A stretch of DNA of 64,000 bases, from positions 1 to 64,000 of the forward strand of contig JAPETS010000065.1 in assembly GCA_026023565.1 (NCBI GenBank). The letters run 5' to 3'. Numbering within the stretch: the stretch's first letter is position 1; each line of letters begins with the position of its first letter. The DNA comes from Cirrosporium novae-zelandiae (Eukaryota). The notes beneath the pieces are model-generated. The model worked only from the letters and a program-made list of their open reading frames with translations, searched no databases and was not told the origin of the DNA. The translations under genes and the position numbers were made by a program. Shown in pieces: positions 1-36,300 of the stretch.

Positions 1-71
1 GGGGAAGTACTTATTTCTCCCCTCCCCCCCCCCCCCCCCCTATCCACCCACCCATCCCCTCTCCATTCCCA

Positions 72-1659
72 TCACCTCATCCACAACTCCCTCTCCCCCA
101 CCTCCATCCCCTCAACCCTCTCCCCCAACTTCCCCACAACAACCATGCCCCTCCCCCTCTTCAAAAACTTCCCATCCTCCATCCCCCCCACCACACCCCC
201 CCGATCCCGATCCCAAGCAATCTTCCCTCTCAAAATCGTATACCGTGGCCAGTTACGAACGATCATTCCTTCGTAGGGCGTGTAGTCTACTCCATGATGG
301 AGGATTTCTTGGGTGATTGTTATGCCGGGGTTTTGGGATGGAGAGGATGGGGAGAAATCGTGGGAGTCTGGGTACCAGATTACTAGGTCGGCATCGTAGC
401 CTACGGCGATGGAGCCCTTGGTGCCATTCATGCCGTAGAGTTTTGCGGGGTTTGTGCTTGTGAGCTGCACGAAGCGGGGGAGGGAGATTTTGCCATCGAG
501 GGCTGCGGAGAAGAGAAGGGGGAGTCTGGTTTCGACGCCCGGGAGGCCGTTGGGGATTTTTTTGAATGATGGGATACCGTCTACAAGACCCAGTTTTTTG
601 CCGGCCGGGTGATTGTAGGTGGAGGGGGCGTGGTCGGAACTAAAAGTTGTGAAGGTGCCGTTGGCGAGGTGCTGCCACATGGCTTGGAGGTCCTTGGGAT
701 CGTGGCGTAAGGGTGGGGAGCAGACGCATTTGGCACCCGAGAAGGGGTCGGTTTCTGTGCCTTTGATTTGCGAAGAGAGGAGAAAGAGGTACTGCGGGCA
801 GGTTTCGGCGTGGATGGGGAGGAGCTTTCCTTGCGCTTTGCGTACGTGTTTGACGGCGGCTGAGGCGCTCATGTGCACTAGGAGGATGGGCGCGTCGGCT
901 AGGTTTGCAAGTGCGATTATTCGGTATGTGGCTTCGTCTTCGGCGATTTGCGGACGGGAGACTGCGTGGTAGTAGGGTTCTGTGAGTCGAAATGATTCTA
1001 AAGCGTTGGTGATGTGGGCTATCATGTCGTGGTTTTCTGCGTGGATCATGGTTGTCATGCCGCACTTTCGCGCAGCCATCAGCACGGTGATAAGTTCTTT
1101 GTCTGTGAGCTTGAGGGGGTCGTAGGTCATATACAGCTTTAGGGATGTGATACCGTCGGCTGCAAGGGAGGGAAGCTCGTCATTGAGGACGGAGGGTGAT
1201 GGGTTTGTGAGAATTAGATGGAACGAGTAATCACAGTATGACTGATTCCGTGACCTCTTGTGATAGTCCTCGACGACTGGGTAGAGCGAAGCTTGATTTC
1301 TCTCCTGAGTGGCAAAGGCGAGGACAACAGTATTTCCACCGGCAATGGCACTCCGAGAACCAGTTTCCCAGTCATCTCCAGTTGGAGAATTGTCTTGTGC
1401 AAGATGAACATGCGAGTCGATACCACCAGGCGTTATATAGGCGCCTTCAGCATCAATGATTTTGGTAGATGGAGATGATGGGAGTGAGAGCCCAATGCAC
1501 ATGATCTTGCCATCTTTAATGCCGATTTCAAGGCCTGGGGAGAGAACCTCAGAAGATGTAACCTATAGAGAATTAACTAAAAGTTCCATTGATTTGATTT
1601 GATGTAGTTGAGGGATGATTTACAATGATGCCGTTCTTCACAATGGTATCAAAGTCCAT
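72..1659 (-). CDS. D-hydantoinase / dihydropyrimidinase (cyclic amidohydrolase, amidohydrolase superfamily); exons 1659-1624, 1562-72
   Basis: Metal-binding motifs DSHVHL (HxH), LKLYMTY (carboxylated Lys position), IHAEN, VHMS, SSDHAP, plus C-terminal PAKLYG..KGSIAVGYDADLVIW. A 61-nt GT..AG intron (1623-1563) joins exon 1 MDFDTIVKNGII in frame to VTSSEVLSPGLEIGIKDGKIMC. Confidence 0.93.
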
Positions 1660-2372
1660 TTTCAACTTAGGGCTTTATGGGCTGCTCGGACCGGAGACTC
1701 AAATTCCGACTTCCGACCTTTCAACTCTTTTTCGTCTGACACTTATCGAGTACAGCTACAGCAAACAAGCACAGCATTCAGATTCTACGAAGCAATAATG
1801 AGGTCCTGGAGGGGTACTTTGGATATAATTACTGGTGGGGCATAGCAAAGACCCCTCAAGTAAGATTATGGAGCTTACGGAGCATAACACATGGCTCCTT
1901 TACACCATCTCCCTCTCAAGTCTAGTTCGATTTGTTTATCTCTCGCCGACGGTCGGCCTTCTGATAAAGGTGGGATACTCCATTTCGAAGGTGGGTATAT
2001 CCGCCTCATGGGTACATGCTGATGCGGATATAGCGCAAATAAATAATTCGATGTGTGTTTATGAGTTAATTCGGTGCCATGGTTACAGTACTTCAGTGCT
2101 TGGCCTTGATTTAGAACTATTAGTCTATGGACCATTTAATCCTGTTGCAACAATTGAATCATCATTTCACTAATACCCGTATATTTGCTATCTTTCCAAA
2201 GCTAAAACGAGTATGTTTATAGATTCCATAACGAATTGATTCTTACCACTAATTGTTTTCCGGTAGACGTCCGGGAAACGAGAGTGACTTTCGTATTTGG
2301 TCGACTCAGGAAACGTTTGAAACTCAGATTCTCCATCATCCATTCCCTCATTATCTATCATCTCTACCAAAA
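1660..2372. promoter_or_regulatory. Bidirectional promoter between hydantoinase and D-carbamoylase, with several GATA-type sites and a CCG/CGG palindrome
   Basis: 713-bp head-to-head spacer. GATAR elements at about 1742, 1935, 1962, 2188 and 2350. Palindrome GCCGAC-G-GTCGGC at 1945-1957. Function is inferred. Confidence 0.5.
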
Positions 2373-3473
2373 ATGCCTCGAACGTTCAAAGTAGCTGCTG
2401 GCCAGATTGGCTGCGAACCTGTCAATGTCTCCCGCGCCGAAATCGTTGGACGAATGATCAAGCTCCTCCAGGATGCAGCATCCCAAGGAGCTAAGGTCAT
2501 CCTCTTTCCCGAAACCGCATTTACCCACACATTCTTCCCACGACATCTCTTCACGGATCAGAAGGAACTGGATTCATACTTTGAGCTTGAAGAGGATGTT
2601 ACACAGGCGCCCAACACAAAACCACTTTTTGATGAAGCAAAGAAGCTTGGTGTGGATGTCAATGTTGGATATGCTGAGCGTACAAAGGAAGGAAAGGGCT
2701 TCAACACTTGTGTATACTACTCGGCCTCCTTGGGCAAGATAATCAACAAGTATCGCAAAATTCACCTTCCAGGAACATCAGAGCCATTTGAAGACAAGGA
2801 TGCTATCAACCAACTTGAGAAGCGGTATTTCACTCCTGGGGATCTTGGATTTAAAGCTTTCCGGGCTCCAGGTGTTATTTCGGATGTGTTAAAAAAAGGT
2901 ACTAGTGAAGAAAAAACCGATGGAAAGGGAGACCCTATTTTTGGTTCACTCATCTGTAATGATCGCCGCTGGCCAGAGGGGTGGCGTGTCTATGGTCTAC
3001 AGGGTATTGAACTTGTAATGTGTGGATATAACACTGCAGGGTGGGCGCCGGATCTCTGGGGAACGAGGAAGCCAATGACTCGTGAAGAAGCAGACGAGGA
3101 TGCAGTTTTCCACCACAAGTTGGCGATGCAAGCAGGAAGTTATGCGAATAGCTGCTTCTCGGTCTCGGCGGCGAGAGCTGGTATGGACGAAGGTAAATAT
3201 GATCTAATTGGAGGAAGCTGTATCACAGATCCAGAGGGGCATATTCTTGCAGAAGCAAAGACGAAAGGGGATGAGCTTATAATTGCGGAGATTGATCTCG
3301 AAGATTGTAGGCAAGGAAAAGAGAAGGTGAGTTGTCACATCTTTTGTTGAAAATATTTTGTTTGTACTGACTGTGTATGATAGACATTCGATTTCAGCAG
3401 ACATCGAAGAATCGAAACGTACAGCCTCATCTCATCTCAGACAGAAGTCATCGAACCGGAACTGCTCGAATAG
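2373..3473 (+). CDS. N-carbamoyl-D-amino-acid amidohydrolase (D-carbamoylase, nitrilase/CN-hydrolase superfamily); exons 2373-3326, 3384-3473
   Basis: Glu-Lys-Cys triad contexts FPETAFTHTFFPR, KYRKIHLPG and ICNDRRWPE, plus QLEKRYFTPGDLGF and GYNT. These match the signature of Agrobacterium-type DCase. Intron GTGAGT(3327)..TAG(3383) adds TFDFSRHRRIETYSLI..., resembling the DCase C-terminus. ATG 2373 sits in an AAAATG context. Confidence 0.92.
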
Positions 3474-4900
3474 AATTATATGCCTTGGATGACTACTCTC
3501 TAGGTATGAGATGTGCTAGGATCTAGCGAATTCGATAACCATAAAAAAATGCTTGTGAATGTAAAGATCCCAAGTCCCATGATACCCCTGTACATGCCCT
3601 GAAAACTTAGATTTAAACCCTTATTGCTCATCATGAGCCTGAGCTCCTTTCATAGATAAAACATGATGGAGAAAATACAACCCAGAGCTTCCTATGCTAT
3701 CCAACCACGATATCAGATAATTATCACTAGCCTCACGATAAACCTATAGCTAATTAATGACCGATATCTTATCCCTAACTACTTTCGAAAGTATCTAGGT
3801 TGACAATAGGTATCAATCCTCAAAATTACACCTAATATATATCATACATACCATACAGTGTGTAATTTAAGCTATCGGTCGGTCTATCGGGCCAAAGGAC
3901 AAACTCCCCCTTCGGTATCTTCGGTAAAATATCGGAATACCCGACGACAAAGACACCCACCGACACCTAAGAGGTTAGGCCTCTACCGCCCAAAAACGTT
4001 ATCTTTCCAGGCGGCTGTCAAGTTCAAGCCTCCAAATGTCAAATGTCAAATGTCAAATGTCACAAAGCCAAAAAGCCAAACCTCTCCAAAAGACGTCTTT
4101 CTGAAAATAATAATAATAATACCACGATTACATTATTTCCAACGTACAATACACACACAATACTATCTTCAGTATCCGAGGAGACTTTCTCCTTCAAATC
4201 CCCCGTAATAGCCCAGGTCGTTGGGTCTAGTGTTGTAGATCTCTTACAATAAACCCACACCTCTTCGGATATTTATTACCTGATTCTCGGCCATCTGTTC
4301 TGTATGTGGAGACCCTTTAACTACTGTGTATAGGATTTGGGGATTTGGGGATTTTAGAGGGAATGAGGGACAAGTTAGTGGATTAGTCAATTGATGGTTA
4401 GCTAATTAGTTTGCTTGATATAGTTTTTTTAATTGATTGATTGATTGATTGATCATCCACGTGGGGTGGGGGTGGGCTTGTGGTTGCTCTTCTCTCTTTC
4501 TTCTCTTCTTTTTTTTGGAATTTGTTGTCCCATTTATATATCTCTTATAGCCAGTTGTTTCTCTCTCTCTCTCTGTCTTGGAATTGGAGGAATAAGGACT
4601 TAAAAGAGAGAAAAGGATAGTAACAGAAAAAACTAGGAAAGGAATAGCCAACCTACAAACAGTATACTAGCCAGACGGAAAAATAGCTGAGAAGGGCAGG
4701 TTTCAATTCGTTTTGCTCTCACACACATCCATCTATCTTATCTTTTTTGATTACTTTTTGTTTTTCACTTTGGAAACCTCCAATCCATCATCCACCCATC
4801 CATCATTCTATATACGGAAGAATTAGAATTTCACCAAATAAAAATCGGCATTACTACTTACTACTACCGCCACTTACTACCGCCACTGCCACCAACAAAA

Positions 4901-5704
4901 ATGTCCGCCCCATCTCCCGCCCTCCCAACCATAACCGGCACAACCCACTCCGCCCCTCACCGAATCCTACTCATAAACCCAAATGGCACGCCCTCAATGA
5001 CGAAAGCTTGTTTAAGCTCCCTAGCACCCACCCTCCCAGCCGATGTCGAGGTGACCGGTTTCACAACCCCACATCCCACCCCCTCAGCAATCGAAGGGCA
5101 TGTCGACGGGGTCCTCTCCGCGGCGGCAGCCCTCCGCTCGATTCTCCCAATCTCGAAAAACTACGACGCCTTCCTCGTCGCCTGCTTCAGCGCGCATCCC
5201 CTCATAAACGCGCTGAGAGAGGAGGTCGAGGGCCCTGTTATCGGGATCATGGAGGCCAGTTTTTATGCTAGTCGCATGCTTGGGGGTCGCTTGGGGGTTG
5301 TGGCTACTGGGGAGAGGTCTAAGGTTATGCATGAGGATGCTATCAGGGGGTATGGGTTTGAAGGGTTCAGTGCTGGGGTAGAGACGTCTGGGTTGGGGGT
5401 TCTAGATCTAGAGAGGAGGGACCGCGCCGAAGTTTTGGGGAAGGTGGGAGAGGCTGCGAAGAGGTTAGTTGAAGGGAAGGGTGCTGATTGTGTTTGTTTG
5501 GGCTGTGCGGGGATGACGGATATGCGGAGGAGGTGTGAGGAGGTTGTGGGGACTAGGGACGGGAAGGTCATGGTTGTCGATGGGGTCGGGATTGGAGTTC
5601 AGTTTTTGGTGGGGTTGGTTAGGGAGAGGTTGCGGACTGCTAAGGGGGGGGTGTTTAGAAGCGCTGCAGAGGGGAGAAGAGCTAGAGGGCAGGATTGGGT
5701 TTGA
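4901..5704 (+). CDS. DCG1: Hydantoin racemase (Asp/Glu/hydantoin racemase family, Dcg1-like), intronless, 267 aa
   Basis: RILLINPNGTPSMT N-terminal motif and the two catalytic Cys contexts LVACFSAHPL and CLGCAGM; also PVIGIMEAS and VVDGV. Start in AAAAATG context. Confidence 0.92.
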   Translation: MSAPSPALPTITGTTHSAPHRILLINPNGTPSMTKACLSSLAPTLPADVEVTGFTTPHPTPSAIEGHVDGVLSAAAALRSILPISKNYDAFLVACFSAHPLINALREEVEGPVIGIMEASFYASRMLGGRLGVVATGERSKVMHEDAIRGYGFEGFSAGVETSGLGVLDLERRDRAEVLGKVGEAAKRLVEGKGADCVCLGCAGMTDMRRRCEEVVGTRDGKVMVVDGVGIGVQFLVGLVRERLRTAKGGVFRSAAEGRRARGQDWV

Positions 5705-5860
5705 TGCGTGGTCGAGTTCGAAATTTCCTTTAGGGTTGAGGGTATATGAGCGTGGTCAAGTTCGAAATCTCTTTCTAGGTTTTTGGGCTTGATGCGTAGT
5801 CGAGTTCGAAATCTTTCTAGGTTTTTGGGTGTGAGTGTGGTCAAGTTCGAATTCCTTTTA
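5701..5860 (+). repeat. Minisatellite, 4 imperfect copies of a ~41-44-bp unit (core GYGTRGTCRAGTTCGAA)
   Basis: GTTCGAA cores at 5716, 5760, 5804 and 5845. Copies 2 and 3 share TTTCTAGGTTTTTGGG. The first copy overlaps the racemase stop codon. Confidence 0.85.
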
Positions 5861-6351
5861 GGCTTTTCGGGATGGGATGAGAGCTTTGATTTTTATTTTG
5901 CTTCTCCAGTTCAGTTCCAAATCCAACCTGGGGTGGTCACCATCAAGGTCCATGAGCAGTTGCCCCTCAGGTCCATGACCATGACCATCCCACATAAAAA
6001 CCCCTCCAGTTCTCTTTTCTCTTTTCCTCTCTACATATATATTCCCTACCTTTCCACTATTCATATCAATCAAAGTGTGGATAACCAACAAACCCTACTA
6101 CCATAAACTACATTACATTACGCTTTTTTACTTATATTCGATTCTTCTTCTTCTACACTACTACACTCCGTTATCCTCTATAAATATTATTCTTCTACAA
6201 TAACTTTACACACGGGGCATCAATTCGAACGCCTATACTATACACCACACACACTACTACTACTACAAGATATATATCCCACACCTCCATTTTCAACATC
6301 AAACCAAACCAAACAACTCACCACAAACCATCCACCCTTTTCCTCCCAAAA

Positions 6352-6957
6352 ATGTCACCACCATCATCACCAAGCTTTGTTCCAATCCTCGTTCCAGCCT
6401 CCTGCTCGCTTCCAAATGAAAACGCAAACGGAAACGGAGCAGTGGACAATAGGGGGGATTGGGAGCTATTTGGAGATGAGGATAATGGTAATAGAGGTTC
6501 CATGAATTCGGATATGATTTCTGACATGGATGGTCTATGTGACATGGGCTATGGATATGGTGATGATGCCGTAGCTGTTGTTGATGATGGTGTTTCTGTT
6601 GTTGTTGATGATATTGGTATTGTTGTTGATAGCATTGCTATTGTTGTTGATAGGGAGGGTTTGAACTCCAACAACAATAACAATAACGATAACGCCAACG
6701 AACTCCCTCCGCCTCCTCCCTCTTCGACAAACCAAAACCAAAACGAAGAAAGTGGGTATTATACCGCAGCCCGAATTCTGGCTTGGTGTACGGATGTGGA
6801 GAGGCATAGGGATGTTATGGGTATGGGTGATGGGGTGGATATGCCTCCTATGCATAATATAGATAGGGATGGAGTTTTTGTGGATGTGGATTGGTATGAG
6901 GAAATTTGTATATTTTGGATGGAGATGGATGTGGATGGAAGTTATGGATGGGGATGA
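6352..6957 (+). CDS. Hypothetical low-complexity protein (Asp/Asn/Val-rich, 201 aa)
   Basis: Uninterrupted ORF with an AAAAATG start and a pyrimidine/CA-rich leader. It contains ~21-nt internal repeats (xxVVDxx) and poly-N/poly-P runs, with no recognisable domain. Confidence 0.3.
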   Translation: MSPPSSPSFVPILVPASCSLPNENANGNGAVDNRGDWELFGDEDNGNRGSMNSDMISDMDGLCDMGYGYGDDAVAVVDDGVSVVVDDIGIVVDSIAIVVDREGLNSNNNNNNDNANELPPPPPSSTNQNQNEESGYYTAARILAWCTDVERHRDVMGMGDGVDMPPMHNIDRDGVFVDVDWYEEICIFWMEMDVDGSYGWG

Positions 6958-9420
6958 GTGGTGGATAGAAAGTTATGAAGGGTTTGGGGATGGCCACTGT
7001 ATACGACCATTGTGGATATCGAACAAACGAGATCAAGACTGGAGGATGTGTATTCGATAAGGGAAGAAGAATTATATTAGATATCTAGAGTTCCGAAAAT
7101 CTATTAAAGGATTTATTAAAATCTTTCGATTGCACGTTGAGAGTCCCTGAGATTGAGTTGAATATTCAGCTAAGGACTTTAAGAGACCAATTTTCCACAG
7201 CAGAGAACGTCTTGACCAAGGTTCGCGACCAGTTGAAGGGTCAGATTTTTGATATTGGGGATGACGACTATAAAAACGATACAAGGTTCAAAAGTGATTC
7301 TATGCCAGAGGACCTGAAACAAACCTGGATCAATATTTTTAAGAAATTGGATCAGCTTATCAAAGCAGAAATAAAATACACGCTGATTCTAGAAGACCTT
7401 CTAGCAAAATAGTTTCGTGCAGGGAAATCTATCTCCAACGGAGAACCCGTAATCATTATAAAGGACCATCAATACTCGGAGGAGGGAAGATGAAGAGTTA
7501 GATCTTCAAGATATGAAGGACGGAGAATCCGGAGGGTAAGGAGCATACAAATAGTAACCTACAAATTATTATAGAAGGATTATAAGCATTCGAAGAAGAA
7601 AAATAAATAAAAAAAATTAAATCTTCAAAACATAAATACAAAGGACCTGGAGAATAATATCAATAATACCTCTATGGTTTCTGTGCAGAGGGGTTATTAT
7701 CTTCATATTCCAAATTATTCCATGCCCCCAGGCCTAATAATTAGTAATTATAACTTTCATAAAAATTAATTCTAGCCTTATATCCTTCCTTACCACAGTA
7801 CACACACAAAAAAAAAAAAATAATAACAACCTTCATCTCACCTTCAAGCTGAAAAGAAATTAATTAACGCTAGCTGAAAAAGGCCCCCCGTTTGGCTCGT
7901 CGGTTTTCTAGACTATACGTAAAAAAAAAAAAAAGTAGATTTAGTTTACTGTGGAGGGATTTTTTTTGAGTAGGTAAATTTGTAGGGATGGTTGATCATA
8001 TTTCATATATTATTTTTGCTGTGGGAGGGTTATTTGGTTAATATAAATTATTTATTAAAGAATAAGAGTTTAGGGAGGGGTTGATGGATGTGGGATGTGG
8101 GATTATAGGATTATAGGATTAATTAGGGTTATGGAGGTGGAGCGGAGTGGACTAGAGGGGAGAGGGGAGGGGAGGGGGGGGGGGGGGTTGATAGATGTGG
8201 ATATATCTATGTCAAATCTCCTACTATAATATAGATATAACATAAACTATATATTATGTACCACACCCTTCTAGATATGTAAATAAATAGGTGTTTGGGT
8301 AGGTAGGTAGGTATTTATTACAGCATTTTGATGTGATCATGGGGAATAAGGATAAAGGATATGTCACATCAAATCAAATAGACTATACAATCATCCACCA
8401 TCACTACTTACCACTCCCACACCCATCTCCTTTTTTCCTACTTCCCACTTCCCTCCTCCTCCTCCTCCTCCTCCTCCTCCCCCACTCCTACCTTCCCACC
8501 CCCAGCAAACAAACCAAAATCTAAACCCTTCCCCCCAAAAAAGCTCCCCCAAATAAACAAAGCCCTGAAGGATATATATATATATATATATAAACTTGAG
8601 GGTTTTTGGTTTCAATGTTTTAATGTTTCTTAGGGGTAGGTTTGAGTTTTGGGGGGGAAGAAAGGAGAAGGATGGATGAAAAGAGATGGGTTGAGGTGAT
8701 GAGATTGAGGTTGAGGTGGGTGACATTATATCATATCATATTATATTACGTGAGTTAGATCTTTGAATTCCAAATCTTTAGTCCTGAGTCCTGAGTCCCG
8801 ACGGAACACTATAACATAACAGAATATAACCGACCTACAAAATACATATAATTAAACAACCACCTTTCTCTCTCTCTTTCACCCCCCCAAAAATCTAGTC
8901 CCTTGCCATTAGTATAGACTAACTTATATAATAAGAGAAGAGAAGAGAAGAGAAGAGAATCGGAGCTAGAAGGAAGGGAAGGTCAATAAATAACACGTAA
9001 GTCGAGAGAGAGGCTGTTTAATTCTATGATAGGTTGGGTATGTTGGTGGTGGTGGTGATAGGAGGAGGAGGAGGAGGAGTAATACACTTTATCTATTTTT
9101 CGTTAATTATCTACATGCTATGATGATTTGATGATTTAATTTGATTTGATTTGAATTTATAGAATATAAAAAGTTTTTTTTTTCGGATCTTGGATTTTGA
9201 GGGTTTTGAGGTTTTGTGGTTTTTGGTTGTGATAAATAGATGGATGATATAGTTAGTAGCAGTAATAATACATTTACTCACTAATATACCACTTCAACGT
9301 CTCACCCACTTCCCATATAGGCTCTCCTCCCTATAATCTTTTTTTTTTTGGTTGGTTCCAGTCTTCATGAGGTTTTCTTTTCTTTGTACATTTACATGTA
9401 CCTTAGACCCCCCCCCCCCC

Positions 9421-11964: not shown

Positions 11965-13287
11965 ATGCGTATTAGAGACTTGGGTTACACACCTGGATGG
12001 TTGAAGCCAGGACCAAAAAACTCCATCTTGGATGTCAAAGGTAGCCATAATACATAAATTCAGTTATAGTATTAGTACCTGTTCATTGACCAAGACTAGG
12101 CGTTCATGTTGGCCAAATCACCATCGAAGAAGGGGGTGATGTTCGAAAGGGCGTTACTGTTATACTTCCCCGTGATGCCGACGACGTTGTCGACATTCCC
12201 TGTTACGCAGGAATGCACTGTCTCAACGGGAATGGCCAAGTTACTGGATCCTTTCAGATCAAGGACTGGGGATTTATCAACACCGTATGTCTATGACCCT
12301 GCCAGTCAAAACTAATCTTTATGCCATTTAGACTAATGAGCTGACACGAGTTCCGTTATCCTTAATCCTTAGCCCATAGCATTGACAAACTCTACCAGCC
12401 TTGGTCTAGTCTATGATGCCCTCTGGAGGTGGGTTCTCTCACAACACAAAGCCAAGGGCAAGACTATCTACCAGATAGGACGGGATTATGGCACTCCTAT
12501 TGTGGGAGAAACTGCTGATTGGTGGCTGAATGACGTCTTTCGATCTGCAATCGCTCCAGCTGACATTGACAAGGCGATAGAGAACGCCTCAACTCAAGAA
12601 AGTGTTCAGGAAGGTCAGCACGGTGGTGGCGCTGGGATGACTTGTCATGAATTCACAGGAGGTACGGGAACCGCATCCAGGGTTGTTGATGGGGAAGATG
12701 GTAAGGAATACACCGTAGGTGTCTTGGTGCAATCGAATTATGGACATAGGGAAAATTTCCATATCGGTGGACTTCCTATTGGAAGAATGTTAGCCAAAGA
12801 AACGGAAAGCAAAGAAAAGCAGGCACCAGGAGGCAAAGTGGATGAAGGAAGTATCGTCATCATTATTTTCACAGACGCACCTATGCTTCCTCATCAACTC
12901 AATCGACTTGCTCAACGTGCCACGGTCGGTCTGGCACAAGTAGGGGGTCACGGTATTGGACGAAATTCTTCTGGTGATATCTTTCTTGCTGTGTCAACAG
13001 GAAATGCCCTCTGCGAACAACTATCAGCTCCAAAGCCAACTCCTGGTCAATCAGTTCATAGCCAGCCAGCTCATCGTCATCCATGTGTGCAGACAACCAC
13101 GGTACAGACGATTAAGAATGAGAGCGTAGATGCTGTCTTTAGGGCGGCTTCTGAGGCCACCGAGGAAGCTATACTAAATTCATTGGTCGGGGGCAGAGAG
13201 GGGAGGGTCGGATTTCGCATGGCGCTAGAAGGCTTACCTGTAGACAAAGTTGCCGAACTGTTGAAGAAGCATCTTGTAGTAGTCTGA
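11965..13287 (+). CDS. dmpA: DmpA/BapA-family (peptidase S58/P1) aminopeptidase; exons 11965-12040, 12100-12284, 12373-13287
   Basis: Spliced translation MRIRDLGYTPGWLKPGPKNSILDVKGVHVGQ...GVTVILPR...LNGNGQVTG...PIALTNS...VGET...GGGAGM...VQSNYG...EG/SIVIIIFTDAP (autocleavage Gly-Ser)...NSSGDIFLAVSTGN...EATEEAILNSL. Two canonical introns. Confidence 0.9.
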
Positions 13288-24914: not shown

Positions 24915-26983
24915 ATGACAAACGACACTGCGACTTGGCAAGGTCGTGCAAAAGCGAAACGTGAAGCTATTCTACAAGCAATTCCCGAGAAGTGGATATT
25001 AAAGGAACCCATTCCGTCCCCTGAAGAACAGCGCGATGTGACAGGAAAATTTATACATCAATTTCTCAATTCGCATGAAATTGAAATAACTGAGACAGAT
25101 GCTGTAGGGATCGTTGAAAAGACAACTAGTGGAACATGGACAGCTGTGGAAGTGATCGAAGCTTTTGCCCATAGGGCTGCACTTGCTCACCAGTTGGTAG
25201 GTAATACTGGGGGAAATTTCTAATAGAAGGGAGGAAATGCTTAAAGATTTAGGTGCATTGCCTACACGAATTCTTTGTCGATACCGCAGTAGCCGATGCG
25301 AAAAAATTGGATGCATACTTTGCTATGCATAAACGTCCGATAGGCCCTCTTCATGGTCTTCCAATCAGTTTGAAGGACCAGTTTCATATCAAAGGGGTGG
25401 AAACTACTATGGGGTATATTGGCTGGATAGGAACTTTCCAGGGCAAGAAGGGAACCGGAAAAGAGATGGTTTTTGAAAGTGAAATGGTCAGAGAACTACG
25501 AAATCTTGGCGCAATTTTGTATTGTAAGACGAGTGTGCCACACACGCTGATGGTCGGAGAGACGGTCAATCATATTGTTGGGTATACTTTGAATCCTAAG
25601 AATCGACTCCTCAGTTGTGGTGGAAGCTCAGGAGGAGAAGGGGCTTTGATTGGGCTTCGAGGATCTCCCCTGGGATTCGGCACAGACATTGGTGGATCTA
25701 TTAGGATACCAGCCGCGTTTAATGGCTTGTATGGACTCCGGCCATCACATGGACGTATGCCATATGAAGGAATGGCTAATTCCATGGATGGTCAGAATAC
25801 CATTCTGTCCGTGGTAGGGCCTTTGGCCACCACTGCACGCTCACTTAGGCTGGCAGTTAAGTCAGTCTTAAGCCAACAGCCGTGGTTATACGATCCTCTA
25901 GTCAACGAACTTCCTTGGAGGGATGAGATGGAGAAACAGGTAGATCTGATGGCTAGTAAGACCACTGGGCAACTGTCCTTTGGTATTCTGCGAAATGACG
26001 GAGTTGTTACTCCCCACCCCCCAGTTCAGAGAGCTATCGAGGTTGTTGCGAAAACAATTGAGAAATTAGGTCACAAGGTAGACTAAACCATTCATGTTAT
26101 ATTTATATTGCCATCAACTAATTGCTCTAGGTTATTGATTGGAACCCACCTTCCCACAAACATGCCATGGATATAGGAGTAGGTGAAATACGAATATCCT
26201 AATGGGCACAGGCTTACATAGATAGCTCAAAACCTGGATTTATGATGGTGGGAAGGATGTTCATGAAGCAGCTGGGTTGTCTGGGGAACCTCTAGCCCCT
26301 CAGCTATCAATATATGGATCTAAACCGGTAGCTGAAATGGTAGCCAGCGATATTGCAGCGGTAAATATCGAGAAGCGGGAATACCAGAAAGAATATATGG
26401 ATTATTGGAATAGTACAGCAGAAAAGACTGGGACAGGACGGCCTGTGGATGCATATATTTCACCACTTGCGCCTTTTGCAGCAGTGCGACGCAATCGATA
26501 CTCATGGATAGGGTATTCGATCGCGACAAACGTCTTGGATTACAGCTCGTGCGTTTTACCAGTGACGCACGCTGATGAGAAGATTGATGTGGTAAATGAG
26601 GATTTCAAGCCCATGACGGATCTTGACCAGGATATTTGGAAGGATTGTAAGTCCTGTTTTTTTTTCTATCACCTGCCTGATAAAGATAAAGATACTGGAT
26701 GAGAGCTCCAAGGAGAGGACCCACCAGGGCCAAGATAATGTGCGTAGAAGAATTTTGAGGTGGTTATTTCGGCAGATGGTTTTTGCAAATGGTTGCCACT
26801 CAGTTTTATGCGCAGTGGGTTGAGTAAAGTTGAAGTGTAAAGCTAACGGTGTTGGCAGATGATGCGAAGCTTTATGATGGAACGCCGGTGTCCGTTCAGG
26901 TGGTAGGTCGAAGGCTCCAGGAAGAAAAGGTGGTGGCACTGACTGAATATCTTGGTCAGGGGCTTTCAGGGCTGAGAGAATGA
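24915..26983 (+). CDS. Amidase-signature family enzyme (acetamidase/general amidase-like); introns 25197-25252, 26078-26130, 26179-26225, 26647-26858
   Basis: GPLHGLPISLKDQ (catalytic Lys), CGGSSGGEGALI, GTDIGGSIRIPAAFNG (Ser-cisSer), and C-terminal GTPVSVQVVGRRLQEEKVV reconstructed after the last intron. Confidence 0.93.
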
Positions 26984-33395: not shown

Positions 33396-36300
33396 CTAAC
33401 CAGATCGAGTTGGCAAGTCCCTAAACACCTTCTTGAAGATCTCCCTACTCTTATAGAGATTAGAGATCCGTAGCCTCTCGTTGTCCAGATGCGCACTGTC
33501 ACTTGCCTGACCACACGGTAAATGAGCAGCGGGTGCTCCGAATTCTTTTTCGAGGAAACGGATTGCGGGGATGGAACCGCCTTCTCGGATATAGAGGGGT
33601 TTTCGGATGGTGGAGTGATTGGGATCCGAGACAATGCTATTTGTTAATCGCGTTTGTGCTTGTGCTTGTCCGGCAGGATCAATAGGATCTGATTGGGGTG
33701 AAAGTGGATCTCCACCGTTTGTCAAGGTAGATGATGTTGCTGGGGCAACCTTGGAGTTTCGACGTTGGTGAAGAGGGAAAAATTCTTTGGTGGGCGATTT
33801 TATAGGAGATGTGACATTTCGATGGCCTTGGCCAATCGGGCCCCATGCCTCCATAACTGCATCCTCCAATGTTCTAAAGATTTCGTTTTCTGGATCGCCG
33901 AGCCATGGCTCTGCCCTGTGGTCAATGCGAATCGATAGATGATTCGTACTGTCTAAAAATTCAAATTGCTCTTCTAGATAGGCAATGAGATTTTTGGCTA
34001 CCTCATCTGTATTTTGATTTGGAACAAGTCGAATAGAGAGACTAGCGGTTGCAAGTCTGGGAATAATAGTAGAGTTCTCGGGACCCGATACTTTGAAGCC
34101 ATGGATTGTGAGTGAAGCCTCCCTCCACCTCCGCATCAATGACTGCTTGAGAGTTTCTTCATCACCAAGACCAGGATTTCGTTGAAGAAGAGCAGTCGTA
34201 ATCGCAGTATATCGTGCTTCTTCGGCTTCAGTAAGCGGTAGTATTGGATCATAAAAGTGCGGAATCTTGATCTTGCCGTGGAAACCAGTAAGAGCAGAAA
34301 GAAGCATAACCAGATCTTTGAGAGACTCGTCCAACATAGAGCTTCCATCAACTCCGCTGTGGAGATCTGGATGATCACTCTCCACTTGAATTGTTGCGTG
34401 TATTACTCCACGTAGGCCATATGTCAAACATGGCACTTCGTCGTCAAGCCAATAACTATTAGCCAATAGAATCCAATCAATGTCCCCAATCACCGCTTTG
34501 TTCTCCTGGATCGTTTTCTGAAAGCCTCGAGATCCGCATTCTTCTTCCCCTTCAATGAGAAAGACAATATCACAATTCAACGATTGGGTTGAAACAAGGT
34601 CCATGGCAGCATATAGGGCAGCCAGGATAGGCCCCTTGTTGTCAGAAACTCCTCGGCCGTACAGATAACCATTACGCCCTTCCATCGTAAATGGAGTAGT
34701 TATCCATTTCTGACGTTCGTTTTCGGCAGCAACGACATCATAGTGACCATAGAACAGAATCTTTTTGGCTTTCGAACCGGATATAGAACTAGCATTAAAG
34801 CTTGCGTAAACAACAGGGTTGAGTTGCCCTTCAGTTCGAAGCATCTGAGTGGAAGCCCCGAATTTCTTAAACAGGCCACGAAGGTAGCTTGCGCCTCGAC
34901 GGCATTCTTCAGAGTATTGAGGGGCCGATGATACTGTTCGATAAGAAACAAACTTGGCCAAAGATGCAATAAGCTGCTCTGCAAAATTGTTAGTGCAGAT
35001 ATTATCGATGGGAACCGGAAAACTCACCATTGGTTGCTTCGAGTCTTTTACCCGAGCTGTGCGAACATTCATTGACATCCCATATCGCGACACAGCTGTC
35101 ATTCCCGCCGGATATGTACAAGTTACGGCCGTTATAGGAGGTAAAAGCAGAAGTTAGAATTAAACCATCGTGGCCTGCCCAACGATTGATGCATTGAAAA
35201 CTTTGATCAAATTTCTGACAGGATTAGATTTTCACAAGACGGTGGACAAGAGGCTATGCTTACCCTAATTGCACCGCTTGAGGCGCCACTGAATATCAAA
35301 CCATCGCCCATAGCTAGGGTTAACACATCCGCAGCGTGTGCTTTCACATTGCGGATTAACTGACGAGTTTCCAAATCCCAGATGTTGATTCGGCCTCCTA
35401 ATCGTCCACTATAGAGAAATGATCCATCTGCAGCAAGTGCTAATACGGAATCATCACCGTCTTCAAGAGTGACTTGTTCATGGATCCTGCCCTTGTCATC
35501 TTTGTCCAATGTCCAAATCTTGATGGTGCCATCGCCTCCACCAGATATCAAGGTCTCGCTGCCAAAAAGTTCTTTTGTTGCACCCTTTGCGAGCACCATA
35601 CAATAAACATATCCATAATGCGCATATTGAAGGATATCCTGGTTCGATATTTCCAGTTGTTGTCCACCAAGTGTTCGAAGCTTGGCGTCCTTTTCGTCGA
35701 CAGGAATTGGTGTAACAGTGCCACCGGGACCCTTCGAGTCGAAGAATCTATGGTTGCGAGAAGATGGATGACGGCCTAAGCATGGTCGAGTGCCCTTGGG
35801 GTTCAGATTAACCCACTAAGTGTCATGATTAGCTTGATTGCTATCCTAGTTGGCATGAAGCATCGTGGCTAACCTGTATGCTTGTATTCTGAGCACCGCA
35901 GTAGACTGTTTGTAGATCCGATGAATACACCACACAAAAAACGTCACCTACATCGTACGTGGAGTAGATTTCATACAATCGTTTTAGGGATTTGGTCGAC
36001 CAAACCTATTACGTCAGATACCCCTCATACAAATAGTGCATCCTGAACTTACATTGACAATTGCGTCGCCCGCACTAGAGAATAACAACTCCCCATCTTC
36101 AGAGACATATAAGGAGAGCACACTGAAGCGATGCGCTTGGACAGAATGTAGTAGTTCGTAAGTTTCGAGACTAAAATCCTGTGCGGCGTAAGCACTTGTC
36201 CACCGTTCCAGAGAGATTGAATGCATACCAGAATTTCTCCTCCTTGAGTTCCAGCAAAGATGTGATCCCCGCAAGCTGCTAATGACAAGATGGAATTGTC

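Follow-up and report, generated by a model that had tools for sequence, protein, structure and literature searches.

Three genes whose products resemble enzymes of hydantoin metabolism lie side by side in this fungal DNA, which raises the question of whether they form a pathway comparable to the bacterial hydantoin-utilisation (hyu) systems or whether their proximity has another explanation. The window (i.e. the whole stretch of 64,000 nucleotides that was analysed) contained three intact genes at bases 72-5704, designated G1, G2 and G3, as read from open reading frames and splicing in the sequence. Alignments showed that the expected catalytic residues were all retained in the three products. 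The first-pass annotation had assigned genes of three enzyme families to these positions, and both aspects held: all three genes were found there, and Pfam, PDB and model matches agreed with the families named.

Organization of the locus

G1 (72..1659, minus strand) encodes a cyclic amidohydrolase of the dihydropyrimidinase/D-hydantoinase type (508 aa). The gene starts with an ATG at 1659 and displays a single intron of 61 nt (1563..1623, minus strand, GTAAAT...CTATAG, i.e. GT..AG, read from the sequence) between exon 1 (1659-1624) and exon 2 (1562-75), the stop codon being located at 74-72. Both the N-terminus supplied by exon 1 and the C-terminus of the spliced product aligned with fungal homologues. 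Pfam matches were Amidohydro_1 and Amidohydro_3. The score against NCBIfam model TIGR02033 (D-hydantoinase/dihydropyrimidinase) reached 403 bits, above the cut-off of 393.25, while that against the allantoinase model TIGR03178 (215 bits) was below the cut-off of 357.85. Metal-centre residues H51, H53, K142, H174, H230 and D310 (numbered on the 496-aa exon-2 product) were unchanged across 11 aligned sequences. The top PDB match was 2fty, the Lachancea kluyveri dihydropyrimidinase PYD2 (E 4e-108, with two aligned segments scoring 209 and 156 bits), followed by bacterial D-hydantoinases. Being the closest solved relative, this enzyme points to G1 as a member of the old fungal PYD2 dihydropyrimidinase lineage; the fungal family containing G1 takes in yeast PYD2 and, among the best 120 matches listed, a basidiomycete. 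A database amidohydrolase 100% identical to G1, located on a 102,287-bp contig, carries a 'partial' flag, so that the assembly probably ends left of G1, at this edge of the window.

G2 (2373..3473, plus strand) encodes a homologue of the Agrobacterium-type N-carbamoyl-D-amino-acid amidohydrolase (D-carbamoylase, 347 aa). Its two exons (2373-3326 and 3384-3470, stop codon 3471-3473) are separated by one intron of 57 nt (3327..3383, plus strand, GTGAGT...TACTGAC...TAG). Splicing yielded database protein P0005 (347 aa) without any mismatch, and the C-terminal exon aligned with fungal homologues. The product matched Pfam CN_hydrolase at 3e-45, and its top solved relatives were the Agrobacterium D-carbamoylases (E 3e-66, 42-45% identity), as opposed to only E 8e-10 for 2vhh, the nitrilase-type beta-ureidopropionase of Drosophila. 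Foldseek searches with the AF2 model (pLDDT 82.7) returned D-carbamoylases in all of the top 19 listed rows (TM 0.84-0.89), the Agrobacterium enzymes reaching a TM of 0.88 at 42% identity. Residues E47, K129, E149, C195, N196, R198 and R199 were unchanged in 53 fungal and bacterial sequences. Three of them (Asn196, Arg198 and Arg199) align with Agrobacterium N173, R175 and R176, which we take to be the alpha-carboxylate binders. Immediately before the nucleophile strand, fungal carbamoylases have about 25 additional residues that are specific to fungi; this insert was of low confidence in the G2 model and is shorter in Septoria. G2 also has Gln where the Agrobacterium enzyme has His144, as do many bacterial relatives, and its substrate specificity may therefore differ from that of the latter.

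G3 (4901..5704, plus strand; coding part 4901-5701, stop codon 5702-5704) is intronless and encodes a two-cysteine racemase of the Asp/Glu/hydantoin family (267 aa; Pfam Asp_Glu_race, PF01177, at 1e-54). All 16 racemases aligned, from fungi and from bacterial hyu clusters, had C95 and C202. The top PDB matches were the allantoin racemases of Klebsiella (4e-23) and Pseudomonas (3.5e-22), with about 30% identity; bacterial hyu-cluster racemases, at 27-35%, were neither nearer nor farther. The family reaches Schizosaccharomyces octosporus (40%) and Basidiobolus (39%).

G1 and G2 are divergently oriented and separated, from ATG to ATG, by the 713 bp announced in the first-pass annotation (1660..2372), presumably a shared promoter. 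Six HGATAR sites were counted in this spacer on both strands together (the window mean, for comparison, is 3.5 per kb), and a single CCGG-N7-CCGG palindrome was located at 2260; both are only weak hints of possible regulatory signals. The G2-G3 spacer (3474..4900, 1.4 kb), where the G3 promoter is presumed to lie, displayed 11 HGATAR sites and short simple repeats. No gene was detected in it, since its sole ORF of at least 130 aa had no Pfam match, nor was any Rfam family. The genes surrounding the cluster were ordinary eukaryotic ones. Neither a permease or regulator nor further purine-catabolic genes were seen within the 64-kb window, and its single M20 gene, 28 kb away, encodes a Dug1/CNDP2-like dipeptidase and not PYD3.

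Linkage in fungi and bacterial counterparts

Synteny had been proposed as a check by the first-pass annotation, and the trio indeed proved to be linked in other fungi. Locus tags were compared in assemblies with tags in two of the three best-120 match lists, one more assembly being added; the counts thus describe the best 120 matches listed rather than a genome-wide survey. Carbamoylase and racemase genes were at most two tags apart in eight of nine comparable assemblies, amidohydrolase and carbamoylase genes were adjacent in all four, and amidohydrolase and racemase genes were two tags apart in both. Likewise, amidohydrolase and carbamoylase had consecutive GenBank accessions in 7/7 assemblies compared, as did carbamoylase and racemase in 2/2. 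Claussenomyces (M1818_003942-44) and Coleophoma cylindrospora each had the complete trio in consecutive positions. Linked genes occurred in Xylobotryomycetes, Leotiomycetes, Candelariomycetes and Dothideomycetes, as well as in Xylographa and Lambiella, presumably Lecanoromycetes. At least five classes of Pezizomycotina, with moulds and lichen fungi among them, thus preserve the linkage. A 617-aa gene model of Septoria linicola consists of a near-complete carbamoylase fused to a racemase; together with the adjacency in other Pezizomycotina, this argues for conserved linkage and against chance. One assembly, that of Xylographa bjoerkii, was an exception, with carbamoylase and partial racemase on separate contigs. 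As the first-pass annotation had supposed, full-text literature searches found no characterisation of the fungal trio. The three families themselves are known from automatic annotation. Numerous moulds and lichen fungi that are only remotely related have kept the trio together, yet its role there is apparently unstudied.

The parallel with bacterial hyu clusters was borne out by 14 of the 84 alphaproteobacterial loci examined (L004, L019, L031, L032, L036, L038, L044, L066, L069, L072, L073, L079, L081 and L084), in which carbamoylase and racemase genes lay within 8-10 kb together with one for a G1-like hydantoinase. Identities to the proteins of these loci were 38-46% for G1, 42-47% for the carbamoylase and 27-33% for the racemase. 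In Agrobacterium, the three enzymes together turn DL-5-substituted hydantoins into D-amino acids (PMC7431475). In four loci of the Bradyrhizobium type, the trio adjoined homologues of the pyrimidine-catabolism genes URC1 and URC4 (DUF1688).

Proposed pathway and competing explanations

We consider, with modest confidence, that the locus probably represents a catabolic cluster conserved in Pezizomycotina, made up of three separately transcribed genes and acting like the bacterial hyu system. It would most likely degrade a chiral, 5-substituted ureide that resembles hydantoins, yielding an amino acid, NH3 and CO2. The racemase G3 would interconvert the enantiomers of this cyclic ureide, G1 would open the ring of one of them to give an N-carbamoyl amino acid, and G2 would hydrolyse the latter, which yields CO2, a free amino acid that is most likely D-configured, and NH3, whereby nitrogen is released. 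We infer the joint pathway, the order of its steps, its D-stereochemistry and its function in nitrogen scavenging; the D-amino-acid output, nitrogen scavenging and candidate substrates of the first-pass annotation are likewise a matter of inference only. Since G1 falls in the yeast PYD2 lineage, for which a role in the use of dihydrouracil has been tested, its natural substrate may be a dihydropyrimidine instead of a hydantoin.

This last point leads to another reading, possible but rather unlikely, in which the cluster is the Pezizomycotina version of the final two steps in the reductive breakdown of pyrimidines. As PYD2 orthologue, G1 would open dihydrouracil or dihydrothymine, the nitrilase-type G2 would replace the M20 enzyme PYD3 as beta-ureidopropionase, and G3 would act on the chiral C5 of dihydrothymine or be only loosely associated. 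The PYD2 structure as top solved relative, the match to a model named dihydropyrimidinase (TIGR02033), the wide distribution of the G1 family in fungi (among the best 120 matches listed), the lack of PYD3 in the window and the URC1-like and URC4-like neighbours in Bradyrhizobium-type loci are all consistent with it. It was thus too strong to state, as the first-pass annotation did, that the locus is 'not simply' the yeast pyrimidine pathway; it may serve in dihydropyrimidine breakdown, the carbamoylase taking the place of PYD3. Yet G2 is much nearer to D-carbamoylases than to the beta-ureidopropionase 2vhh and retains the Asn/Arg/Arg set of the former, and a conserved, sometimes fused racemase would be without role on achiral dihydrouracil; moreover, we know of no dihydrothymine racemase. 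That the three genes are functionally unrelated, their adjacency being kept for reasons other than a common pathway, is unlikely in view of the linkage maintained over several fungal classes, the Septoria fusion model and the independent recurrence of the trio in bacteria.

A side branch of purine-ureide metabolism is also quite improbable. In this case G3 would racemise allantoin, the activity proposed for yeast Dcg1, and the substrate of G1 and G2 would be allantoin itself, a hydantoin resembling it or one derived from oxidised purines, allantoate being formally an N-carbamoyl-alpha-amino acid. The top solved relatives of G3 (Klebsiella HpxA and the Pseudomonas enzyme) fit this proposal, but the match is biased by the scarcity of hydantoin racemases in the PDB, and the identity of about 30% does not exceed that to hyu-cluster racemases. 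DCG1 is termed a probable allantoin racemase, by similarity alone, in two sources (PMC13751858, PMC3646786). In several databases, homologues of G1 bear the name 'related to DAL1-allantoinase', although G1 fails the allantoinase model and passes the dihydropyrimidinase one; nor does the window hold any further purine-catabolic gene. It is disfavoured, and highly improbable, that this fungus recently acquired a bacterial hyu operon as a block by horizontal transfer, or that the three genes are bacterial contaminants in the assembly. The trio does occur in alphaproteobacteria, and a eukaryote survey (PMC5169069) gives Asp_Glu_race the most predicted HGT events, mainly into fungi. Against this stand the spliceosomal intron in each of G1 and G2, GC3 values of the three genes (0.62, 0.44, 0.63) within the range of other window genes (0.40-0.69), and the ordinary eukaryotic neighbours. 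Fungal clades were also monophyletic in each of the three gene trees, with long stems (0.63, 1.51, 0.58), and identities to bacteria were uneven (42-53% for the carbamoylase, 27-35% for the racemase and 38-46% for the amidohydrolase). Finally, fungal carbamoylases formed a group (99*) with 49 alphaproteobacterial sequences, a clade without a G1-like hydantoinase or classic hyu neighbours at its loci; fungal amidohydrolases grouped instead with hyu-type bacterial hydantoinases. From the trees, the levels of divergence and the wide fungal spread of the amidohydrolase and racemase families, it appears that the three genes came together within fungi rather than being received as a transferred operon.

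Relation to known systems

Like the DAL cluster of Saccharomyces cerevisiae, the locus is a putative fungal nitrogen-catabolic gene cluster, and G3 shares Pfam family PF01177 with DCG1 and bacterial HpxA; in contrast to DAL, the window holds no allantoinase, allantoicase, ureidoglycolate hydrolase, permease or malate synthase. PYD2 of the L. kluyveri PYD2/PYD3 route and G1 are of one fungal dihydropyrimidinase lineage. Here, however, G1 has as its partner a D-carbamoylase homologue of the nitrilase superfamily instead of an M20 beta-alanine synthase such as yeast PYD3, and a racemase is linked. Unlike the hyu clusters of Agrobacterium and Sinorhizobium (D-hydantoinase HyuH, D-carbamoylase HyuC, hydantoin racemase HyuA/HyuE), the fungal cluster consists of monocistronic genes, two of them with introns and G1/G2 divergent, has no adjoining permease within the window, displays the carbamoylase insert of about 25 residues, and its three genes were not placed by trees beside one bacterial cluster type. 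With these same clusters it nevertheless shares the three protein families, their catalytic residues and an arrangement of the genes within a few kb of each other.

Organization of the cluster and its surroundings

The amidohydrolase, carbamoylase and racemase genes (G1, G2 and G3) are co-located within 5.6 kb of the window, and their structures were read from stop-to-stop ORFs together with the sequence. G1 (72..1659, minus strand), coding for a cyclic amidohydrolase of 508 aa, is composed of a first exon of 12 codons (1659-1624), a 61-nt GT..AG intron (1623-1563) and a second exon of 496 codons (1562-75) followed by the stop codon (74-72). Since fungal homologues can be aligned at either end of the protein, over the spliced N-terminus as well as the C-terminal tail, the gene is complete in the window, although its stop lies only 71 bases from the window edge. 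The 'partial' flag on a database protein identical to G1 indicates a probable end of the source contig at the left edge of the window. The DNA directly downstream of G1 at this edge (1-250) is very C-rich and of low complexity, with repeats of 13-27 nt. G2 (2373..3473, plus strand) has two exons (2373-3326 and 3384-3470), and its spliced product is identical, letter for letter, to a database protein of 347 aa, attributed in one source to a metagenome-assembled Cirrosporium novae-zelandiae. G3 (4901..5704, plus strand) is intronless, with coding positions 4901-5701 (267 aa). A 44-nt unit in four tandem copies (76% matches) occupies positions 5695-5867, beginning at the racemase stop codon.

The first-pass annotation had described a divergent promoter of 713 bp shared by G1 and G2, and the distance from ATG to ATG is indeed 713 bp. 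The gap between G2 and G3 measures 1.4 kb and neither a gene nor an RNA family was detected in it; likewise, an Rfam scan of window positions 1-9000 found no family. Both spacers displayed an HGATAR density about twice the window mean (the reference being this mean rather than other intergenic DNA), which is compatible with nitrogen control, as a hint only. A single CCGG-N7-CCGG palindrome was recorded, at 2260, and one 11-mer is common to the two promoters, both again no more than hints.

Genes around the cluster are ordinary eukaryotic ones. Three nearby genes code for hydrolases, namely a Peptidase_S58 (DmpA-like) aminopeptidase (12373-13284, plus strand), an amidase-signature enzyme (25253-26083, plus strand) and an M20 dipeptidase (33399-35153, minus strand). 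The latter was considered as a counterpart of PYD3, from the dihydropyrimidine route of the yeast Lachancea kluyveri, and was rejected as Dug1/CNDP2-like. Housekeeping genes (Fe-ADH, a KH-domain vigilin-like protein and a protein kinase) stand between these three genes and the cluster, and the three were not counted in it. An open frame of 257 codons (6184-6954, plus strand), rich in Asn and Asp/Val repeats and with no Pfam match, could represent either a gene specific to the lineage or non-coding DNA.

Linkage of the three genes in other fungi

Fungal synteny was read from NCBI locus tags in the lists of the best 120 homologues of the three proteins, and from accessions. Among these best 120 matches, carbamoylase and racemase tags were at most two numbers apart in 8 of the 9 assemblies sharing a prefix (Coleophoma cylindrospora, Rhynchosporium graminicola, Scytalidium lignicola, Claussenomyces sp., Pycnora praestabilis, Xylographa parallela, X. 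trunciseda and Lambiella insularis). Only X. bjoerkii departed from this, its racemase being a partial model located on a contig of 6 kb. In some species, gene models stand between these two genes (e.g. WAI453_003425). Amidohydrolase and carbamoylase were neighbours in all four cases among the matches listed, i.e. the assembly of the window, Claussenomyces, Trypethelium eluteriae and R. graminicola, the adjacency in the last one coming from the cluster look-up. Amidohydrolase and racemase were two tags apart in both cases among the matches listed (Claussenomyces and Cudoniella). Accessions told the same story: in the cluster look-up, those of amidohydrolase and carbamoylase were consecutive in the seven assemblies compared (two Coleophoma species, three Rhynchosporium species, one of them in two assemblies, and Phialocephala subalpina), and those of carbamoylase and racemase in two of two (Scytalidium and Xylogone).

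In the whole-library racemase search, a 617-aa model from Septoria linicola (P0387) carried carbamoylase then racemase in one protein, with a near-complete carbamoylase part (59% identity over residues 1-327) and a racemase part of 52% identity over residues 351-617. Two other models, P0383 (partial) and P0234, also join the two proteins. These models could be genuine fusions, or two annotations merged into one; in either case they imply same-strand adjacency of carbamoylase and racemase in a further lineage. The carbamoylase part of the Septoria model is devoid of most of the fungal-specific insert described below.

Class look-ups placed the taxa in Xylobotryomycetes (the class of Cirrosporium novae-zelandiae), Leotiomycetes, Candelariomycetes and Dothideomycetes, to which Xylographa and Lambiella add Lecanoromycetes. 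Conservation over several classes of fungi, both filamentous and lichen-forming, and partly as fused models, points to a real, selected pathway. Parastagonospora nodorum (Dothideomycetes) and Fusarium (Sordariomycetes) formed a pair with a support of 100 in both the racemase and the amidohydrolase trees (P0204/P0206 and P0348/P0363). This pairing contradicts the species phylogeny and could reflect transfer of the cluster from fungus to fungus or a shared paralogue.

Predicted activities of the three proteins

The carbamoylase contains a CN_hydrolase domain (Pfam, 3e-45), and its best 11 PDB sequence matches were all D-carbamoylases (E-values from 3e-66 to 2e-59), against only 8e-10 for the nitrilase-type beta-ureidopropionase of Drosophila. 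With its AlphaFold2 model (pLDDT 82.7), the best 19 Foldseek rows listed were again all D-carbamoylases, with TM-scores by target of 0.84-0.89 and 40-43% identity. Residues E47, K129, E149 and C195 were invariant in 53 fungal and bacterial sequences and align with E47, K127, E146 and C172 of the Agrobacterium enzyme, i.e. the Glu-Lys-Cys triad and the second Glu. The CNDRR motif (N196, R198 and R199) was invariant in the same 53 sequences; its Agrobacterium equivalents N173, R175 and R176 are the binders of the substrate alpha-carboxylate. Agrobacterium His144, an important residue, has no His counterpart in the fungal proteins, which display Gln, as do most aligned bacterial relatives; a His occurred at this position only in the second copy of L001 and in L004 and L005, three of the bacterial loci compared. 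Since most aligned relatives have Gln, His144 is not universal in the clade. Ahead of the nucleophile strand, fungal carbamoylases further contain an insert, some 25 residues long, which was modelled at low confidence. In NCBIfam, G2 matched no N-carbamoyl-D-amino-acid amidohydrolase (EC 3.5.1.77) model, its best score being with aguB (93 bits versus a cut-off of 410). G2 may carry out D-specific decarbamoylation of N-carbamoyl-alpha-amino acids.

The amidohydrolase (Amidohydro_1 domain in Pfam) scored 403 bits with TIGR02033, the D-hydantoinase/dihydropyrimidinase model (EC 3.5.2.2), above the equivalog cut-off of 393.25; this is the whole-protein score of the 496-aa product of exon 2. It remained below the subfamily model NF009941 (537.9 bits versus 647), below the allantoinase (DAL1/AllB) model TIGR03178 (215 bits versus 357.85) and below the dihydroorotase and hydantoin-5-propionate amidohydrolase models. 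The best solved relative was the dihydropyrimidinase of L. kluyveri (2fty, E-value 4e-108), followed by bacterial D-hydantoinases (1nfg, 3e-89), well above animal enzymes. In an alignment of 11 fungal and bacterial sequences H51, H53, K142, H174, H230 and D310 were invariant, and this set of HxH, carboxylated Lys, two further His and Asp is presumably the binuclear-metal centre. Ring-opening activity is predicted, on a hydantoin or a dihydropyrimidine.

The racemase displayed an Asp_Glu_race domain (PF01177; Pfam 1e-54). Its catalytic cysteines C95 and C202 were invariant in 16 sequences and correspond to the pair of cysteine motifs in 3qvj and 5lfd. The closest solved relatives were the allantoin racemases of Klebsiella and Pseudomonas, at about 30% identity. 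Since bacterial racemases of both kinds are about 30% identical to G3, sequence does not decide between 5-substituted hydantoin, allantoin or another substrate. A protein atlas query with the racemase gave no clusters other than the ascomycete one to which it belongs and generic ones of bacterial racemases, and nothing on yeast Dcg1.

Origin, proposed pathway and rival readings

Querying metagenomes with the carbamoylase yielded just 6 loci, all at 46-52% identity and none from a close fungal relative, and the scan of prokaryote genomes yielded 78. Named loci were all but one from Pseudomonadota, mostly Alphaproteobacteria. A hydantoinase resembling G1 (38-46% identity) occurred in the flanks of 17 of the 84 loci, a distant amidohydrolase only (23-29%) in 25 and a racemase (27-35%) in 35. 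The full trio, i.e. the classic hydantoin-utilisation (hyu) cluster, was found in 14 of the 84. The closest bacterial carbamoylases (47-53%; Roseomonas and Acetobacteraceae, in L001, L002, L006-L009, L016, L017, L041 and others) have as neighbours a second carbamoylase paralogue (about 41-44%) and an amidohydrolase distant from G1 (23-27%); most of these loci showed no racemase. This arrangement is a different, uncharacterised type of cluster.

Three quick maximum-likelihood trees (IQ-TREE, LG+G4, midpoint-rooted) were built, with bacterial rows picked by similarity to the fungal carbamoylase. Fungal sequences formed one clade in each (support of 100, 99 and 100; stems of 0.63, 1.51 and 0.58). 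Fungal carbamoylases grouped (99) with a clade of 49 rows comprising Roseomonas, Acetobacteraceae and Bradyrhizobium, in whose loci no G1-like hydantoinase was present, and fungal amidohydrolases grouped with the hydantoinases of classic hyu loci. The amidohydrolase family takes in a basidiomycete (Gloeophyllum, 63% identity) and yeast PYD2, and the racemase family extends to Schizosaccharomyces octosporus (40%) and Basidiobolus ranarum (39%). A composition test for recent transfer revealed no anomaly in the GC3 of G1-G3. Contamination or recent transfer is argued against by the introns, the ordinary eukaryotic neighbours and this unremarkable GC3. Trees, family spread, introns, neighbours and GC3 together favour a cluster put together within fungi from genes with different histories. 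The carbamoylase may be of old bacterial origin, as far as unrooted trees with bacterial rows selected by similarity to the query can tell. We put forward as a tentative and rather doubtful scenario that Pezizomycotina built a hyu-like pathway independently, linked since before the divergence of classes, from an old dihydropyrimidinase and an old racemase, both fungal, plus a carbamoylase that probably descends from Alphaproteobacteria, and that it serves a natural chiral hydantoin or ureide.

The best-supported reading of the function of the trio is a hyu-like pathway of three steps, such as the one that the Agrobacterium enzymes perform with DL-5-substituted hydantoins (PMC7431475). For the fungal substrate, stereochemistry and physiological role we infer the following. 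The racemase would equilibrate the two enantiomers of a chiral ureide that is 5-substituted and resembles hydantoin, the amidohydrolase would open the ring and the carbamoylase would yield NH3 and CO2 together with an amino acid, probably of the D form since the D-carbamoylase active-site residues are kept in G2.

Dihydropyrimidine catabolism is the main rival, because G1 belongs to the PYD2 lineage. It also draws on four hyu loci of Bradyrhizobium type which hold URC1-like and URC4-like pyrimidine-catabolism homologues. However, the D-carbamoylase character of G2 and a racemase that is conserved and sometimes fused argue against it. In the four bacterial loci (L031, L032, L036 and L038, e.g. 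L036:4984-7489), carbamoylase, racemase and hydantoinase adjoin DUF1688 (URC4-like) and GTP_CH_N/GTP_cyclohydro2 (URC1-like) proteins, homologues of the yeast URC uracil-catabolism genes, which hints that such hyu clusters belong to pyrimidine degradation. An allantoin-related role of the fungal cluster might also be proposed from sequence likeness, its sole bases being the best PDB matches of the racemase and the naming of Dcg1, the DAL-cluster protein of Saccharomyces cerevisiae, as a probable allantoin racemase; this naming is itself similarity-based (PMC13751858 and PMC3646786).

No description of a fungal hydantoinase/carbamoylase/racemase cluster was found in full-text searches of the main texts of papers readable without subscription. 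The closest paper (PMC5169069) reports that Asp_Glu_race genes were often transferred into fungi, and this text contains neither "hydantoinase" nor "carbamoylase". Many fungal records are already automatically annotated as D-hydantoinase, N-carbamoyl-D-amino-acid hydrolase and hydantoin racemase. The novelty therefore lies in the conservation of the cluster and in what appears to be its independent assembly, rather than in the enzyme families, and the weight of the finding is tempered by these existing names.

The D-hydantoinase/D-carbamoylase/racemase trio is an industrial workhorse, and to our knowledge its natural substrate and role are unsettled even in bacteria. The fungal cluster extends the short list of known fungal catabolic gene clusters, gives genetically tractable hosts (carriers include Aureobasidium pullulans and a Penicillium) for finding the physiological substrate and could provide eukaryotic enzymes for D-amino-acid production. 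Should independent assembly hold true, fungal genetics could finally reveal the physiological substrate of the enzymes of the 'hydantoinase process', and a eukaryotic route to D-amino acids would come to light. No transporter was found within the 64 kb to the right of the cluster. Two domains therefore show similar clustering, and no evidence of operon transfer was seen: like the bacterial hyu system, the fungal cluster brings together hydantoinase, carbamoylase and racemase genes; unlike an operon co-transcribed with a hydantoin permease, these genes are transcribed separately.
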